The translations under genes were made by a program, and so were the position numbers. The notes beneath the pieces were generated by a model. It worked only from the letters and a program-made list of their open reading frames with translations. It was not told the DNA's origin and ran no database searches. DNA of 64,000 nt from Minisyncoccota bacterium (GTDB lineage Bacteria; Patescibacteriota; Minisyncoccia; JBAYJV01): NCBI GenBank assembly GCA_041664925.1, contig JBAYJV010000002.1:200302-264301 (forward strand), read 5' to 3'. Positions 9,223-48,128 of the stretch are shown here, piece after piece (the stretch's first letter is position 1; each line of letters opens with the position of its first letter).

Positions 9223-9339
9223 TAAAATGAAAAACCTGTAGATATCTAACATCCCTCGTCGCTGACATAGATAAAGCGCTGATTTTGCCCAAAAGATTGA
9301 CCGTAGATGTCCGACATCTACAACTGAAATTTTAATTAT

Positions 9340-21264: not shown

Positions 21265-21485
21265 ATTTTTGTTTTTTTTAAACCGTAAAGATTATTCTAA
21301 GTTTTTCCTACAAAACCTTACGAAGTCGGACTTCGTAATCATTGACAAAAATGCAGAACATAGTAGGATTATAGAGTTCTTTGATAAAATAAAAAGTAGT
21401 CCCGCACCAGAGCACAGCACGGTGCGGGATTTAAGGGTTTGCAAGACTCGTAAACTCGTCAACAACCCCTAAAGGAGGACATAAA

Positions 21486-41892: not shown

Positions 41893-42594
41893 ATGAAAGC
41901 CATAATTCTCGCTGCGGGAAGAGGGGTAAGAATGAGACCATATACTCATTTAACCCCAAAACCGCTTTTAAAAATAAACGGGAAACGCATTATTGATCAT
42001 ACCTTAAGTATTCTTCCTCAAGAAGTAGATGAGATTATTATTGTTGTTGGGCATAGAAAATGGCGAATTAAAAAGTATTTAGGAAACTCTTATAAGGGAA
42101 AAAAAATTACCTACATCTCGCAAAAAGACAAGAAAGGCACTGCTCATGCTCTCTATCTTTGCAAGCCTTATTTAAGAAAAAAAGAGAAGTTTTTGATAGT
42201 TTTTGGCGATGATATTTATACAGAAAAAGATCTCAAAAGGTGTATCCAATATCCATTATCTATTTTGGCAGCTGAAGTTGAAAATCCTAGCGCTTTTGGA
42301 GTATTAAAGTTTAATAAAGATCGCCACCTCGAAGAAATTATTGAAAAACCCAAAGATAATCCTCCGAGCAATTTAGTTGTTTGCGGTGTTTTTGTTCTTA
42401 GTCATAAAATTTTCAAATACAGAATGCAGGCAATCGATAATAAAGAATTTGGCTTGCCCCAAACTATTATGAAAATGGCGAAAAAACATCCGATTAAAAT
42501 AATCAAAGCTTCTTTTTGGTTGCCCATTGGCTATCCAAAAGATTTAAAAAAAGCTAAAGAAGTTATGTTCGCCAACAATAATAATATTTCCTGA
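41893..42594 (+). CDS. Sugar-phosphate nucleotidyltransferase
   Basis: MKAIILAAGRGVRMRP...KPLL G-rich NTP-binding motif. Confidence 0.8.
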   Translation: MKAIILAAGRGVRMRPYTHLTPKPLLKINGKRIIDHTLSILPQEVDEIIIVVGHRKWRIKKYLGNSYKGKKITYISQKDKKGTAHALYLCKPYLRKKEKFLIVFGDDIYTEKDLKRCIQYPLSILAAEVENPSAFGVLKFNKDRHLEEIIEKPKDNPPSNLVVCGVFVLSHKIFKYRMQAIDNKEFGLPQTIMKMAKKHPIKIIKASFWLPIGYPKDLKKAKEVMFANNNNIS

Positions 42595-42630
42595 TTGTTT
42601 TATAAAAAAACTAACAAAGGAGGGGCAACC

Positions 42631-43401
42631 ATGCAATCTGTTGATGAGCAAAAACCAAAAAAGTCCTTTAACATTCTATATGCTTTGCCTGATTTCTTTA
42701 CAGTTCTTCGTATTCCTATTGGCATTGCCATAGCGTTTGTTGGAATATTTTTCGGAAGAAACGGCGTCACAATCGCTTATTGGCTTTTACTCGGCGGTTG
42801 GACAACTGACATTCTTGATGGCAATATTGCGCGCAAAATTGGTAAGAAAAAAACCTGGATAGGTGAACATGATATTCTTTTTGACAGTATCATGCTCCTT
42901 GGTGTGATTTTCTATCTTGGATATGTTGGTTTTATGTCTGTTTTATTAACCGTTGTCTCATTCGTGTTGCTGCTCTTTGTTAACGTTTACCCAAATACTC
43001 GTCATCAAACAAAGTTTTTCGTAGAGTCGCTAATTACCTGTACAACCTTGCCATTTCTTTTTTATCTTTCGCTAAATCCTTTGATAATTGCCGTCACAAT
43101 AGCGTGGGCAACGCTCAACCTCCTTTACGACATAGATCGGGCTATGGTCTTGGGAAAAAAGTGGCAAGACATTTTGGTTAATGTTGGCAAAACACTTAAG
43201 TCCTATTCTTTAAAAACCAATCTCACTTGGTCAATATTGGTTATTGGCATAGGAATCGGAACTGCAATACTCTTATTCAATAACAAAATTCCCTTTTTGT
43301 TCGGAGGAATTATTAAGGGCCTTGCTGTAGTTATGATTTTAATAGCTCTATGGGCTCTGTGGCTTGGCAGAAGAAATCTTCCTAAAAAACCAGAAGAGTA
43401 G
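42631..43401 (+). CDS. CDP-alcohol phosphatidyltransferase family membrane protein
   Basis: Motif DILDGNIARKIGKKKTWIGEHDILFD (D-G-x2-A-R...G-x3-D-x3-D). SD AAAGGAGGGG before ATG at 42631; the ORF track starts upstream at 42595. Confidence 0.65.
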   Translation: MQSVDEQKPKKSFNILYALPDFFTVLRIPIGIAIAFVGIFFGRNGVTIAYWLLLGGWTTDILDGNIARKIGKKKTWIGEHDILFDSIMLLGVIFYLGYVGFMSVLLTVVSFVLLLFVNVYPNTRHQTKFFVESLITCTTLPFLFYLSLNPLIIAVTIAWATLNLLYDIDRAMVLGKKWQDILVNVGKTLKSYSLKTNLTWSILVIGIGIGTAILLFNNKIPFLFGGIIKGLAVVMILIALWALWLGRRNLPKKPEE

Positions 43402-43524
43402 TTTCGCAACTACTCTTCATTTTTAAACAAACATTGAATGATTTTTAGATTCATAGCTTGACATTTATTTTGTAATGATATATGATGTGTTTAGTTCTTG
43501 TTACTACTAAAAGAGGAGGAAGAA

Positions 43525-43908
43525 ATGACCACTAGGTCAAGATCAATGGAAGTTTATCCGAGTGTTCAAAGAATATATCAAGAACACCTTCCGGACAATG
43601 TGACCGCTGTCCAAACAGCCGTAGCTCGAGTACGAAAAGAATTTGAGGGTGGTCAAAAACTCAAGCGTCTTGAAGTCATAATTGGTTTAAGTTTGAGTGA
43701 TTTAGACAGGATCTGGGGTCGATCATATCGTCTCTATATGGATCCTACTGGCGCAGGACAACACCGCTTATATGGATGCCATAGTAATACGATTATGACG
43801 ATTCATTTCATTAACGAAGATAAATTGCAAGTGTTAAAAGAATACAGAAGAAGCATTAAAGAGGAGAGAGAGAATAGAAAAAGACAGGAAGCTGATAATA
43901 GGCTTTGA
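43525..43908 (+). CDS. Hypothetical protein (first gene of accessory island)
   Basis: SD AGAGGAGGAAG; promoter TTGACA-N17-TATGAT at 43458-43486; terminator 43916-43946. Confidence 0.4.
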   Translation: MTTRSRSMEVYPSVQRIYQEHLPDNVTAVQTAVARVRKEFEGGQKLKRLEVIIGLSLSDLDRIWGRSYRLYMDPTGAGQHRLYGCHSNTIMTIHFINEDKLQVLKEYRRSIKEERENRKRQEADNRL

Positions 43909-43973
43909 TTACCCAGCGCCGCCCAAGAAAAAGGGCGGCTTTTTTCTTGACATTAAGCATAAATTAGAGATAA

Positions 43974-44008
43974 CATGGAAATAGAGCAGAGTTTTAAAAA
44001 TTTCCATG
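43974..44008 (+). promoter_or_regulatory. Candidate operator: 9-bp perfect inverted repeat overlapping the GIY-YIG start codon
   Basis: CATGGAAAT-N17-ATTTCCATG; the right arm contains the ATG at 44006. Promoter TTGACA at 43947. Confidence 0.45.
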
Positions 44009-44395
44009 AAAACAAATCCTTCGGTCTTTCTCACTTGGCAGGGTTATTACGATTACGACATAGAAAATGTTGAAAAGTATGTTTTAAAGGAACCTCGTCT
44101 TCCTGGCGTTTATAAAATTGCCGAACTTCAAGAGTTTAGCAGTTTAACGCCATTTTTTATCGGAAAAACCGACGATCTCTATAAAACATTAATGCGCCAT
44201 CTTGGTGATCTTGAAACCAACACTTGCCTTAAAAAGGAGATGAAAGATAAAATTTGTTGTTTTAAGTTTTCTGCCTTAATGAATGAAAAAGAGCAAAACG
44301 ATGTTTTGTTCACAATGTTTGAACATTATCATCCTATCTGTAATAACAAAGACGATATTCCTCCGGCTGACCTAGTTGAAATCAATTTTCAATAA
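44006..44395 (+). CDS. GIY-YIG nuclease-family small protein
   Basis: GVYKI...(12 aa)...FIGKT then R (MRHL) and E (GDLE), the GIY-YIG core. Stop overlaps the next start (TAATGA). Confidence 0.5.
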   Translation: MKTNPSVFLTWQGYYDYDIENVEKYVLKEPRLPGVYKIAELQEFSSLTPFFIGKTDDLYKTLMRHLGDLETNTCLKKEMKDKICCFKFSALMNEKEQNDVLFTMFEHYHPICNNKDDIPPADLVEINFQ

Positions 44396-44634
44396 TGAGA
44401 AAAATAACTCCAAGAGAATATGCTGTTTTCAGCTTCATTAAACAATTTTTAGACGACTACGAAAAAAGTCCCACCAGGCGGGAAATCGGAGAAGCTTTTT
44501 CTATAACAACTCAAGGCGCAGATTATTTTGTTCACCGGCTTATACAGAGAGGTGTTGTTTCACTCAGATCAGATAGTGTTCGAAATATCCGTCCAACTGA
44601 AAAATCATTGGGACGCCAACCTCATCTCTGGTAA
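44395..44634 (+). CDS. LexA-like winged-helix DNA-binding protein (DBD only, no peptidase domain)
   Basis: ITPREYAVFSFIKQFLDDYEKSPTRREIGEAFSI...HRLIQRGVV matches the LexA N-terminal DNA-binding domain. Confidence 0.55.
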   Translation: MRKITPREYAVFSFIKQFLDDYEKSPTRREIGEAFSITTQGADYFVHRLIQRGVVSLRSDSVRNIRPTEKSLGRQPHLW

Positions 44635-44763
44635 TTAATAAATAAGGATTAATATATTCTGATAATAAACGGTATTGTCAGTTTTTTGTTCTCTAAAATT
44701 TGACAAATAATAGTCCATGTGATAAGCTCAAGAAAGTTCTCATAAAAAATACAAGGAGGTAAA

Positions 44764-45423
44764 ATGCCTGAACCAGCTGGTCAGAAAGAAAAAGTCCTAG
44801 TGTTTATCGATGCTGCTAACTTAAGCGCGGCCCAGAACAAAATAGGATTATCAATTAACTTTAGGGCTTTCTCAGATGTTTTGAGAGGTGACGGAGAGTT
44901 TATCGAGAAAGGGTTACGTTTTTACGAGCAAGATGCAATCGGTAAGCAAGGTTTTTTTTCAGCACTCAGAGTGCACGGCTATACTATTATCCCAACGAAA
45001 GAAAGTAATGTTGATGATGCAATTCTAAGAGATATACATTCAATGGCTGCCTTGGCTGACAGAATTGTTCTGGTCAGCGGCGATGAAGATTTTACTGACG
45101 CACTGCTCATGGCTGGAGTTGGAAAAAAAATTCAAGTTTTTTCCATTTCAACGATGGTAGCAGCAAGATTTAGAAACAAACCGTTTGAGTATATCGATCT
45201 CGCTGATTTAGTTGATCAGATTATTGATAAAACAAAGACTAATGAAAGATCTCGAAGAATATATCTCGATCCTTCAGGTCAAACCCTTGAAATTGTTCTT
45301 GGAGATAACAGCACAATCACAATCACTCCAAATCAGAGAAGTGCCAGCGTCCGGATTACTGGGAGCATTCTTTACAAACGCATGCCAGACTGCTTATATA
45401 TCACGGTTAAAGATATAAATTAA
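44764..45423 (+). CDS. NYN-domain (LabA-like, PIN-fold) ribonuclease-family protein
   Basis: VLVFIDAANL ... IVLVSGDEDF NYN signature; SD AAGGAGG; terminator 45463-45495. Confidence 0.7.
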   Translation: MPEPAGQKEKVLVFIDAANLSAAQNKIGLSINFRAFSDVLRGDGEFIEKGLRFYEQDAIGKQGFFSALRVHGYTIIPTKESNVDDAILRDIHSMAALADRIVLVSGDEDFTDALLMAGVGKKIQVFSISTMVAARFRNKPFEYIDLADLVDQIIDKTKTNERSRRIYLDPSGQTLEIVLGDNSTITITPNQRSASVRITGSILYKRMPDCLYITVKDIN

Positions 45424-45535: not shown

Positions 45536-45601
45536 TTGACTTTTTTACTAAGGTATGCTATACTGATAATAAGTACAAGTGACTGGGGTTGTCCCAGTCA
45601 C
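45536..45601 (+). promoter_or_regulatory. Consensus promoter plus 9-bp perfect inverted repeat in the 5'UTR of the high-GC orphan
   Basis: TTGACT-N17-TATACT (45536-45564), then GTGACTGGG-GTTGT-CCCAGTCAC (45579-45601). Confidence 0.55.
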
Positions 45602-45629
45602 AATAAAACCAAATAGGAGGAAAGAAACG

Positions 45630-46514
45630 ATGTGTCCGATTAATGCCGATGGAATCAAGGTCGTTGCTCCTGCTTCTCCCGTAAGGGACCCGCGAACGAA
45701 CAAGGCAGTTGCAGTTGAGGTCGTCACGAAGGGTGAGTTTGAACGCTTCAATATGCCCAACTATTTCAGGGTGGGAGAAAGCGGCTCGATCACCTTCGGG
45801 TTCGGTCACTTCAACCAGGAAGGAATCGGCCGTGATCATCAGTTCAAGATCGTGGTCGAGAAGCCTCGGGAGACCGTCGACAAACTCAATCAGATGGTAA
45901 GCGACTGGTTCCGCCTCCGAAGCCTGGCGAGAACTTCGTCAGGTGACGAGAGAGAGGAAGCACGAACAGCGTTCAATGAGCTCAAGTCACGATTCCTAGG
46001 AATCATCGGGCAGCCAGCAATGGCGAAGCTCGCAACGCCCAATCTCCTGATTCTCAGTCCTCTCGAATCAGGAACAGAGGTCTTCGCGTCGATTGTGGTC
46101 TACACGACTTTCGAAAGCGATGACAAGATCGTGGATCCGATGGACGAGGGCGTACTTCTTCATGGGAGGTTCGGAGAGAATGGTCATGTGATCGCAGTTC
46201 TGATCACAACCGACCGCACCATCCCCTTCACAACTCCCAATGGATACACGTGGAAGGTTCCTGTGGATGTCCCCAACGGAGTTCCCACGGTGGAAGCGAC
46301 CTTCCCGCCGGATGCCGGTCACGAAGCGCCCGCTACCAGCGATGGCAGCGAGAGCGCCAGCGACCACGCACGAGAGGAGGTTCCTTTCCTCGAAGAGAAA
46401 GACCGTCATCATCGTAGTGGCAGAAAGCTCGCTGCGGTCGGCGCCACTGGAAGAGGCAAGGGAACCAAGAGGGGGTTGCATCCTGCCGATGTAGGAGCAG
46501 AAGACGACGGATAG
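45630..46514 (+). CDS. High-GC orphan protein, likely horizontally acquired
   Basis: SD AGGAGG before ATG at 45630; about 55% GC; own promoter 45536-45564 and terminator 46523-46560; disordered charged C-terminal tail. Confidence 0.55.
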   Translation: MCPINADGIKVVAPASPVRDPRTNKAVAVEVVTKGEFERFNMPNYFRVGESGSITFGFGHFNQEGIGRDHQFKIVVEKPRETVDKLNQMVSDWFRLRSLARTSSGDEREEARTAFNELKSRFLGIIGQPAMAKLATPNLLILSPLESGTEVFASIVVYTTFESDDKIVDPMDEGVLLHGRFGENGHVIAVLITTDRTIPFTTPNGYTWKVPVDVPNGVPTVEATFPPDAGHEAPATSDGSESASDHAREEVPFLEEKDRHHRSGRKLAAVGATGRGKGTKRGLHPADVGAEDDG

Positions 46515-46596: not shown

Positions 46597-47649
46597 ATGA
46601 ATAGTTATATGGTTAAATTCTTGAAATCTATTAAAGATTATTATCGCCTTCATCGAAAAAATATTTTAATTATATTTTTTTCTTCTGTTTTAGGAACAAT
46701 TCTTTTTGTTTCTGTTTTTTTGTATGTTGATTATAGGGATTTGGTAAGAGATATTCTTAATTTTTCTTGGTGGAAATTTCTAGTATTTTTTACCATATCA
46801 ATCTTTGCTTTTATTGCCGTGACTTATCGTTGGGCTTTGATTGTTAAAGCTTATGGTTTTAAAATTTCGTTTTGGCGTCTTTTTCGTTATCGTCTCGCTG
46901 GTTTTACTTTTTCATATATGACACCTCTTAACGAATTTGGCGGAGCGCCTTTCAGAGCATATTTGCTTGCCCGTGAAAATATTCCTTTCAACTCTGGTCT
47001 TTTAACGATTATTCTTGAAAATTTCGTCGAAGTTTTTACTCAGTCATTCGTTGTAACCTTCTTTATTGCTATTTTCTTATCAAGCCTCGGATTATCAACT
47101 AAGGCTTTGTGGCTGTTGGTTATAGCTATTATTGTTTTTATTGCCTTCGTTGTTTTTGTTTATTTCAGACTTAGAAAAGGTAGTCCTATTATTACGCCGC
47201 TATTGAAGTTTTTAAAATTGAAAAAACTTTATAAAAAAACCATTGAGCCAGAACAGTATTTTCTAGAATTTTTTACCAAGCACAAAAAAGTATTTTTTAA
47301 AACCATCGGCGCATCGCTTCTCGTTTTTGTTATAACCGTGGGTGAAATTTGGTTTTTGCTTTATTTGATGGGATTAAATTTGGGATTATTCAATACGTTT
47401 TTTGCCAAAATTATTTTAAATCTTGCTAATACTATTCCTGTGCCAGCAGCGCTTGGAGTTTCTGAATGGGCGCAAACCGGATTTTTCGAAACTATTTTAC
47501 ACAACAAATCGGCCGGATTAACATTTAGTATGATTTTCAGAGCAAAAAATATATTTTATTCACTTATAGGTTTCGTTTTTCTTGTACATCTATGGCAAAA
47601 AAGAGTAAAATTAGATAAGAAGCTAAAGAGTTTATTTGGGGTTAAATAA
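46597..47649 (+). CDS. Flippase-like polytopic membrane protein (UPF0104/LPG-synthase TM-region family)
   Basis: Eight predicted TM segments; conserved R-rich loop FRYRLAGFTFSYMTP. Confidence 0.55.
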   Translation: MNSYMVKFLKSIKDYYRLHRKNILIIFFSSVLGTILFVSVFLYVDYRDLVRDILNFSWWKFLVFFTISIFAFIAVTYRWALIVKAYGFKISFWRLFRYRLAGFTFSYMTPLNEFGGAPFRAYLLARENIPFNSGLLTIILENFVEVFTQSFVVTFFIAIFLSSLGLSTKALWLLVIAIIVFIAFVVFVYFRLRKGSPIITPLLKFLKLKKLYKKTIEPEQYFLEFFTKHKKVFFKTIGASLLVFVITVGEIWFLLYLMGLNLGLFNTFFAKIILNLANTIPVPAALGVSEWAQTGFFETILHNKSAGLTFSMIFRAKNIFYSLIGFVFLVHLWQKRVKLDKKLKSLFGVK

Positions 47650-47681: not shown

Positions 47682-48128
47682 ATGTCGAAATTACCAGAAA
47701 AATTCTTACGAAGCCTTAAAACAGCCATAAAAGGAATTGTTCGTGTTTATAAATCTGAGCTTAGTTTTCGAATTCAGTTTTGGTTTGGCATTATTGTGAT
47801 GACTCAGATTTTTTACTGGCCGATTGGGGAAATAAAGCGCCTTATTTTGTTTCTTCTTATTTTTCTTATTTGGGTCTTAGAGATCCTTAATACTACTTTT
47901 GAAAAGCTTTTTGATGAGATTGAAAAACGCTACCACGAAAGAATAGGTTATTTAAAAGACATCTTGGCTGGTGGAGTTTTAATCATGACTATCGGATCAA
48001 TATTGATTGGTTTGCTTGTTTTTTGGCCATATATTATTGATGTGGCATTGTTCTCTATCGTAGAATCAATTTTGATTATTATTTTTCTTTATTTAGCAAG
48101 AGAAGTAAAAAAGATTATAAAAAAATAA
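47682..48128 (+). CDS. dgkA: Diacylglycerol/undecaprenol kinase family
   Basis: EILNTTFEKLFDEI ... IGYLKDILAGGVL matches DgkA conserved helices. Confidence 0.7.
   Translation: MSKLPEKFLRSLKTAIKGIVRVYKSELSFRIQFWFGIIVMTQIFYWPIGEIKRLILFLLIFLIWVLEILNTTFEKLFDEIEKRYHERIGYLKDILAGGVLIMTIGSILIGLLVFWPYIIDVALFSIVESILIIIFLYLAREVKKIIKK

Follow-up and report, generated by a model that had tools for sequence, protein, structure and literature searches.

GIY-YIG and helix-turn-helix (HTH) modules are already known in combination from I-TevI, in which a GIY-YIG domain is tethered to an HTH domain and which autorepresses its own promoter. The LexA repressor is composed of a DNA-binding domain (PF01726) and an S24 peptidase domain (PF00717), and its dimers, which are formed via the C-terminal domain, bind compact palindromes such as CTGT-N8-ACAG (PMC8565304). 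In GIY-YIG enzymes, an arginine and a metal-chelating glutamate have been described as catalytically essential (PMC9071465). In this study, two adjacent small genes and a 9-bp inverted repeat at their start were analyzed in a 64,000-nt stretch of DNA from a Minisyncoccota bacterium (contig JBAYJV010000002.1, positions 200,302 to 264,301; hereafter the window, in which positions are counted from the first nucleotide). Gene 1 (44006-44395, plus strand) encodes a 129-aa protein with a predicted UvrC/Cho-like GIY-YIG fold, and gene 2 (44395-44634, plus strand) encodes a 79-aa protein that consists only of a LexA-type winged helix-turn-helix (wHTH) domain. The component domains, namely the LexA DNA-binding domain and the UvrC/Cho-like GIY-YIG domain, are known, and no description of a conserved pair of a stand-alone LexA DNA-binding domain and a degenerate GIY-YIG protein was found in the literature searched for GIY-YIG with LexA, Patescibacteria, pseudoenzyme and winged helix. 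We consider it moderately likely that the two genes form an operon of a clade of candidate phyla radiation (CPR) bacteria in which a wHTH regulator of a lipid gene cluster is accompanied by a non-catalytic GIY-YIG partner, and that the repeat is coincidental.

The homologues of the 129-aa protein fell into 15 protein clusters; the DNA of 16 loci was taken from genome and metagenome collections, and further loci were obtained by exact look-up. The genomes that carry the pair were assembled from metagenomes and represent a clade of CPR bacteria (Paceibacterota/Saccharibacteria). Wherever downstream DNA was available, even at only 47-51% identity, the wHTH gene was located directly 3' of the GIY-YIG-like gene, with an overlap of 1 or 4 nt or a gap of 5-12 nt between them. 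In the window, the stop codon of gene 1 and the start codon of gene 2 overlap by one base (TAATG at 44395), and the two genes are translationally coupled. Moreover, the order of the surrounding genes is conserved as follows: SPFH/band-7, nucleotidyltransferase, CDP-alcohol phosphatidyltransferase, the gene pair, a variable insert, LPG_synthase_TM/flippase-like protein and diacylglycerol/undecaprenol kinase. The window contains, all on the plus strand, the nucleotidyltransferase gene (41893-42594) and a gene for a membrane protein with a weak CDP-alcohol phosphatidyltransferase match (42595-43401) upstream of the pair, and the genes for the flippase-like/LPG_synthase_TM membrane protein (46597-47649) and for a kinase of the diacylglycerol/undecaprenol kinase family (DAGK; 47682-48128) downstream of it. 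More distant wHTH relatives (48-51% identity; loci L020, L021 and L026) have no GIY-YIG-like gene and are still found in the same lipid cluster, where the wHTH gene directly precedes the kinase gene with a 3-9 nt gap or overlaps it (L020:1933-2547, L021:1778-2410 and L026:243-889). Neither protein was found in protein searches of phage and plasmid collections, the PADLOC defense-system models gave nothing relevant for either, and no paralogues of the pair were found in the window. Together with the synteny, these results speak against the pair being a mobile nuclease, homing endonuclease or toxin-antitoxin module, and they link the wHTH protein to the envelope-lipid cluster. The ratio of nonsynonymous to synonymous divergence (dN/dS) was 0.05-0.06 for gene 1 and 0.01-0.03 for gene 2, both at dS of 0.36-0.73. 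The pair is vertically inherited and constrained, and it lies within a lipid-gene cluster.

The gene pair has transcription signals of its own. An intrinsic terminator with 7 G-C pairs and a T-run (GCCGCCCAAGAAAAAGGGCGGC + TTTTTTCTTG; 43918-43949, plus strand, with the hairpin part at 43918-43939) closes an upstream 136-aa open reading frame (ORF), and L004 and L005, the two closest loci (95% and 91% protein identity, respectively), share this hairpin. It is followed by a sigma-70-like promoter, TTGACA-18-TAACAT (43947-43976, plus strand), which matches the consensus at 10 of 12 positions. The upstream terminator and the separate promoter thus indicate that the gene pair is a separate transcription unit. 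Most orthologous loci carry TTGAC[AT]-17/18-TAAAAT or TATAAT at the same place, and only the -35 hexamer is clear in L006 and L016. Transcription is predicted to start near 43983, and under this promoter the mRNA would begin with the A/T-rich leader AGAGCAGAGTTTTAAAAATTTCC (43983-44005, plus strand), which has no Shine-Dalgarno (SD) sequence and is identical in L004 despite a dS of ~0.4-0.55. The missing SD sequence was considered as a special feature of gene 1 and rejected, since an SD-like motif precedes just 10 of the 41 long ORFs of the window.

The 79-aa product of gene 2 resembles LexA over the DNA-binding domain. It matched PF01726 (LexA_DNA_bind) over residues 1-61 with 35.3 bits against a cut-off of 23.7 (1e-8), and a profile of ten orthologues searched against the Protein Data Bank (PDB) gave significant matches exclusively to LexA over residues 1-69, a region which includes the PTR motif before helix 2, the recognition helix and an RGIR-like wing (RNIR). 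The LexA equivalog model TIGR00498 was matched only at its first 69 positions, with 32.5 bits against a cut-off of 110.95. The similarity is seen only at the profile level, and BLASTP against E. coli LexA yielded no match. Unlike LexA, the ORF ends at residue 79 and lacks the Ala-Gly cleavage site of the linker, the S24 peptidase domain with its Ser-Lys dyad and the canonical dimerization domain. The protein also has an invariant, family-specific tail at residues 70-79 (K-x-LGRQPHLW). All 29 related clusters among 5.8 billion proteins are 70-85 aa long, and this uniform length indicates a stable family of stand-alone DNA-binding domains rather than a truncation artifact. Judged by its domain content, the 79-aa protein is not a member of the LexA repressor family because the S24 domain is missing; its relatives are already named 'LexA' in databases. 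In the preliminary description of this locus, gene 2 was taken to encode the LexA-type DNA-binding domain alone and to be unable to respond to RecA. These results bear out both statements, since self-cleavage in response to RecA is not possible without the S24 domain. The gene for the 79-aa protein is found among lipid genes and not in the company of SOS genes, and neither lexA nor recA was detected in the window by tblastn with E. coli sequences.

Gene 1 was harder to assign. The 129-aa protein alone had no Pfam match at E <= 1, and it matched NCBIfam and PDB entries only weakly, the best of them being Cho and the UvrC GIY-YIG domain. An exhaustive profile search retrieved 256 family representatives, mostly stand-alone proteins of 100-130 aa. 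Among the 150 aligned members, 92 matched PF01541 and 36 matched PF20815, and many members of the wider family matched the NCBIfam models of UvrC, Cho, DEDD-GIY-YIG and group I intron endonucleases. In addition, the family profile matched the UvrC GIY-YIG domain 1yd6 at 2.4e-7. The homology of the 129-aa protein to PF01541 would accordingly be transitive, by way of its homologues. The AlphaFold2 (AF2) model built from the 150-sequence alignment reached a predicted local distance difference test (pLDDT) score of 95.9, and it superseded an unusable model from a shallow 15-sequence alignment (pLDDT 49.7). The top nine Foldseek matches of this model were all UvrC N-terminal GIY-YIG domains (1yd3/1ycz/1yd6; probability 1.00, TM-score 0.71-0.76), and there were no other significant PDB neighbors; 1YCZ and 1YD6 were matched over the whole domain, with a TM-score of 0.73-0.76. 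Thus, the assignment to the GIY-YIG fold, in which a beta-hairpin with the two motifs packs against helices, is sound. Like UvrC and Cho, the 129-aa protein keeps the GVY and (Y/F)(V/I)G hairpin, the H65 position and the final Asn. It differs from them in being stand-alone, in an extra N-terminal strand (W11 and GYYDY), in three conserved Cys residues and in the absence of the UvrB-binding, Endo V and helix-hairpin-helix domains.

Further differences from UvrC lie in the active site, which is not intact. The 12 family members that are paired with a wHTH gene, here called the subfamily, were compared with the 138 other members of the alignment. Position 61, which corresponds to the catalytic Arg (UvrC R39, I-TevI R27), is Arg in 96 of the 138 others and in none of the 12, which have Thr (five), Ala (four), Val, Ile or Ser (one each) instead. 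Position 101, which corresponds to the metal-chelating Glu (UvrC E76, I-TevI E75), is Glu in 104 of the 138 and is replaced throughout the subfamily by Leu (seven), Val (three), Ala (one) or Phe (one). A direct alignment to the UvrC of T. maritima likewise placed positions 61 and 101 on R39 and E76. In the window protein, the Arg is replaced by T61, the Glu by L101 and the second motif Tyr by F51; Phe at position 51 is shared with P0002, and the other 10 of the 12 members have Tyr. Other parts of the site are retained in the window protein, namely Y36, H65 and N113: the first motif Tyr, Y36, is invariant, and N113, the equivalent of UvrC N88, is present in 12/12 subfamily members and 126/138 others. 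Furthermore, the Arg and the Glu are both present in 90 members of the wider family and both missing in 28, with 20 members keeping just one of the two, and losses that go together in this way are the pattern expected of pseudo-enzymes.

Gene 1 has subfamily-specific invariant surfaces (W11, GYYDY at 13-17 and KIAEL at 37-41). These surfaces and the purifying selection described above indicate that gene 1 is functional, but probably not as a nuclease. The 129-aa protein is therefore best described as a probable pseudo-nuclease. Of the earlier term 'GIY-YIG nuclease', the GIY-YIG part stands on the AF2 model, the Foldseek matches and the family profile, and the nuclease part is made doubtful by the loss of Arg and Glu and by F51. 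Conserved Cys residues at positions 74, 84 and 112 extend throughout the family (110, 99 and 125 of the 138 others), and His107 is invariant in the subfamily, which suggests a structural metal site or a disulfide inside the GIY-YIG domain. Several side observations concern the family as a whole. The 28 of the 138 members without Arg and Glu come from other branches of the family, which suggests that pseudo-enzymes evolved repeatedly. P0027 is a tandem duplication of the GIY-YIG-like domain, and the gene that follows P0018 encodes, in place of the wHTH protein, a small protein that by eye looks like a PD-(D/E)xK restriction-endonuclease fold. A match in L003 (Oceanospirillum) was rejected, as only a WQGYYDY-type N-terminal motif is shared with an unrelated 240-aa protein that has no wHTH neighbor.

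We propose that the wHTH protein may act as a local transcription factor of the envelope-lipid cluster in which its gene is always embedded. The product of gene 1 would have no catalytic role and would most plausibly assist the wHTH protein as its partner; it could replace the missing S24 domain either as an oligomerization or modulating subunit or as a sensor of a nucleic acid or another ligand. The repeat would have arisen via two substitutions beside the -10 hexamer, which by chance complemented the constrained leader. Several points weigh against this proposal. The partner role of gene 1 is drawn only from adjacency, coupling and co-conservation, and the wHTH relatives of ~50% identity that have no gene 1 keep a similar C-terminal tail, so that the partner is not strictly needed. 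The retention of Y36, H65 and N113 would be compatible with an altered catalytic mechanism. No conserved operator was found anywhere in the cluster, so that the regulatory role itself is putative. Moreover, L004 and L005 keep seven of the nine complementary positions of the repeat with identical spacing, which an imperfect operator could tolerate. Almost nothing is experimentally known about transcriptional regulation in CPR/Patescibacteria; if the proposal is confirmed, a conserved envelope-lipid gene cluster would gain a defined candidate regulator and the GIY-YIG superfamily would gain a pseudo-nuclease. The interest of the locus thus rests on the conserved CPR gene pair and not on the palindrome, which is an ordinary feature.

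The inverted repeat at 43974-44008 reads CATGGAAAT-AGAGCAGAGTTTTAAAA-ATTTCCATG, with a left arm CATGGAAAT (43974-43982, plus strand) and a right arm ATTTCCATG (44000-44008, plus strand) that are fully complementary over 9 nt, a spacer of 17 nt and a distance of 26 bp, or ~2.5 helical turns, between the arm centers. The preliminary description of a perfect 9-bp arm pair with the ATG of gene 1 inside the right arm was exact in coordinates and complementarity, and 44006-44008 is the true start of the 129-aa ORF, as the orthologues are conserved from residue 1. With transcription predicted to begin near 43983, the left arm would overlap both the -10 hexamer and the transcription start and would be a DNA-only element outside the mRNA. 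The earlier interpretation of the palindrome was an operator for autorepression. In its fullest form, a lineage-specific operator would be bound on both arms by a dimer or higher oligomer of the 79-aa protein, which would autorepress the operon by covering the -10 hexamer, the start site and the start codon. We regard this as unlikely. The position of the left arm fits a repressor, the 9 bp are perfect, LexA-family repressors autoregulate as a rule (PMC8565304), and both differences between the window and L004/L005 raise the complementarity of the arms. The idea of autorepression and the combination of a GIY-YIG module with an HTH module are shared with I-TevI. The present pair differs from I-TevI in being two polypeptides with a LexA-type HTH, a degenerate active site and a chromosomal, syntenic location in place of an intron-borne one, and no operator has been demonstrated for it.

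The frequency of such repeats and the orthologous loci speak against an operator. In first-order Markov simulations of the window, 23.5 +/- 5.8 perfect 9-mer inverted repeats with spacers of 0-30 nt were expected, and from these simulations a chance rate of ~0.02 per 60-nt promoter region can be calculated, i.e. ~1 promoter region among the genes of the window. The actual window has 123 such hits, or ~60 distinct repeats, which are mainly hairpins elsewhere. An expectation of zero for the full repeat is valid only for this exact sequence, which was picked post hoc. It had also been suggested that further copies of the palindrome might reveal a regulon; over the 64-kb window, the full dyad occurred once, with no second copy, and the half-site was not enriched (27 matches with <=1 mismatch against 31 expected). 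The repeat is real, yet it is not beyond chance. In L004 and L005, the left arm reads CATAGAGAT, with two mismatches, whereas the right arm and the 17-nt spacing are unchanged, and nothing like the repeat was found in eight more distant lineages (L001, L002, L006, L010, L011, L013, L014 and L016; 57-63% identity). Absence of the palindrome at orthologous loci had been named in the preliminary description as an observation that would speak against the operator, and the comparison showed this absence. The lineages where the repeat is missing nonetheless have a 79-aa protein with an unchanged recognition helix (QGADYFV) and wing (RNIR), and a sequence-specific site read by these elements should likewise be conserved. 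Furthermore, the window and L004 differ at five positions in the 59 nt from the -35 hexamer to the ATG, at a synonymous divergence of 0.42-0.55, and two of these five substitutions fall in the 9-nt left arm, while the spacer and the right arm are identical. Variation in this otherwise constrained promoter and leader is thus highest in the left arm, and the placement of the substitutions indicates that the constrained element is the leader and not the dyad. In addition, the arms lie 26 bp apart from center to center, on opposite faces of the helix, unlike the compact LexA boxes, and the 79-aa protein is without the LexA dimerization domain. A palindromic operator over the start codon is consequently unsupported, and on this comparison the repeat is most likely a lineage-specific coincidence and not a conserved operator of the system.

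A binding site of the 79-aa protein was also sought elsewhere. A k-mer scan of 12 orthologous upstream regions returned only the promoter hexamers and the marginal motif TTAAAATT (5 of 12 regions; shuffle maximum 4), and a dyad search (half-sites of 5-7 nt, spacers of 0-20 nt) in the intergenic regions of the cluster in 12 lineages returned poly-T/A dyads only. Across the 64 kb and ~12 loci, no conserved palindromic operator, LexA-box-like or otherwise, was found in the promoter of the pair or in the other promoters of the cluster. In five lineages (L010:3975, L013:461, L014:833, L018:3604 and L022:322), a CCTT(T)A4-6TT block precedes the ATG of the GIY-YIG-like gene by 3-27 nt, and this block was almost absent elsewhere in the loci; the L014 copy is a perfect CTTAAA-A-TTTAAG palindrome. 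Its counterpart in the window is TTTTAAAAATTT (43992-44003), the leader motif being written as CCTTAAAATT, and a related TTAAAA(A)TT block occurs in other lineages. This A/T-rich leader block is a candidate cis-element that could be an operator or an S1-type translational enhancer.

An active nuclease of two subunits, or a module of the toxin-antitoxin type, is a decidedly unlikely reading of the pair; in this reading, the wHTH protein would target or neutralize a GIY-YIG enzyme with a non-canonical active site. The gene order and the coupling resemble toxin-first toxin-antitoxin operons, and type II toxin-antitoxin systems with an HTH antitoxin likewise consist of two small coupled genes under a single promoter, one of which encodes a DNA-binding protein. 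The three retained active-site residues and the NCBI name of the 129-aa protein, 'GIY-YIG nuclease family protein', would also suit an enzyme. Moreover, GIY-YIG enzymes can rely on non-enzymatic partners, as in SLX1-SLX4, where the concept of an obligate two-protein GIY-YIG assembly is the same (PMC9071465). However, the GIY-YIG domain of SLX1 is catalytically intact, the GIY-YIG protein described here looks non-enzymatic, and the partners are unrelated in sequence. The catalytic Arg and Glu are lost in 12/12 subfamily members, and the pair is further set apart from toxin-antitoxin systems by synteny across lineages of 47-95% identity, a strictly syntenic chromosomal location, vertical inheritance, absence from mobile-element collections and from the PADLOC results, and the lack of paralogues in the window. 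Its slow evolution is likewise atypical of toxin-antitoxin or defense genes.

A more specific scheme, to which we attach a similarly low degree of belief, is a switch of CPR bacteria that is made of SOS-type parts and is independent of both S24 and RecA. A dead UvrC/Cho-like sensor of damaged or single-stranded DNA or of another ligand would then supply in trans the oligomerization or release of a repressor of envelope or stress genes that consists only of the LexA DNA-binding domain. Finally, it is very improbable that the repeat acts as RNA, with a 9-bp stem that hides the start codon of the SD-less gene 1 and throttles its translation: over 43974-44030 a hairpin of -10.2 kcal/mol does pair the AUG, but its z is just -1.5, with 14 of 200 shuffles folding equally well or better, and it is gone in L005 (-3.4 kcal/mol, another structure) and in the remaining orthologues, so that it is neither significant nor conserved, while the predicted start near 43983 leaves the left arm outside the mRNA and the leader from there is unusually unstructured (-2.4 kcal/mol, z = +2.0).

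Another palindrome recurs in the window. The 13-bp sequence GAAGTC-S-GACTTC has eight matches (<=2 mismatches) against 1.8 expected, of which those at 21322, 40405, 53605 and 55774 are exact and those at 9306, 11785, 37586 and 58194 are variants, and it is also present at L001:1145 and at L002:550 and 905. The copies often have longer compensating arms and a T-run, or lie 7-12 nt upstream of TTGACA/TTGTCA, and two of them have the 3' flank TTTTTATTGTCATTCTGA in common. These copies probably represent terminator hairpins of one family or a short repeat of intergenic regions, but they could also be the sites of a regulator. As a target of the wHTH protein it was rejected, as it has no consistent association with the pair and most copies are terminator-like; the sole exception to the missing association is the leader of L021, which has a perfect AGTCCGGACT palindrome (L021:1748).

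The genes next to the pair show two insertions of limited distribution. The 136-aa ORF (43498-43908) has its own promoter, TTGACA-17-TATGAT (43458-43486), and terminator and lacks a family assignment. Outside the window it occurs only in L004 and L005, the closest relatives, and it represents a lineage-specific insertion just upstream of the pair. The 311-aa ORF (45579-46514), which lies between a gene for an NYN-domain protein and the flippase-like gene, has no family matches and is part of a GC-rich stretch (43-45% against ~35%). It is 50% identical in L005 and 33% identical in L010 and is absent from the other lineages, which makes it a variable insert in the syntenic cluster. Directly downstream of the pair, the imperfect inverted repeat TTGTCAGTTTTT / AAAATTTGACAA (44675-44706; 83% complementary, 8-nt spacer) overlaps a -35-like TTGACA. 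It is followed by the NYN-domain gene (44764-45423), which, unlike the pair, has a strong SD sequence (AAGGAGG).

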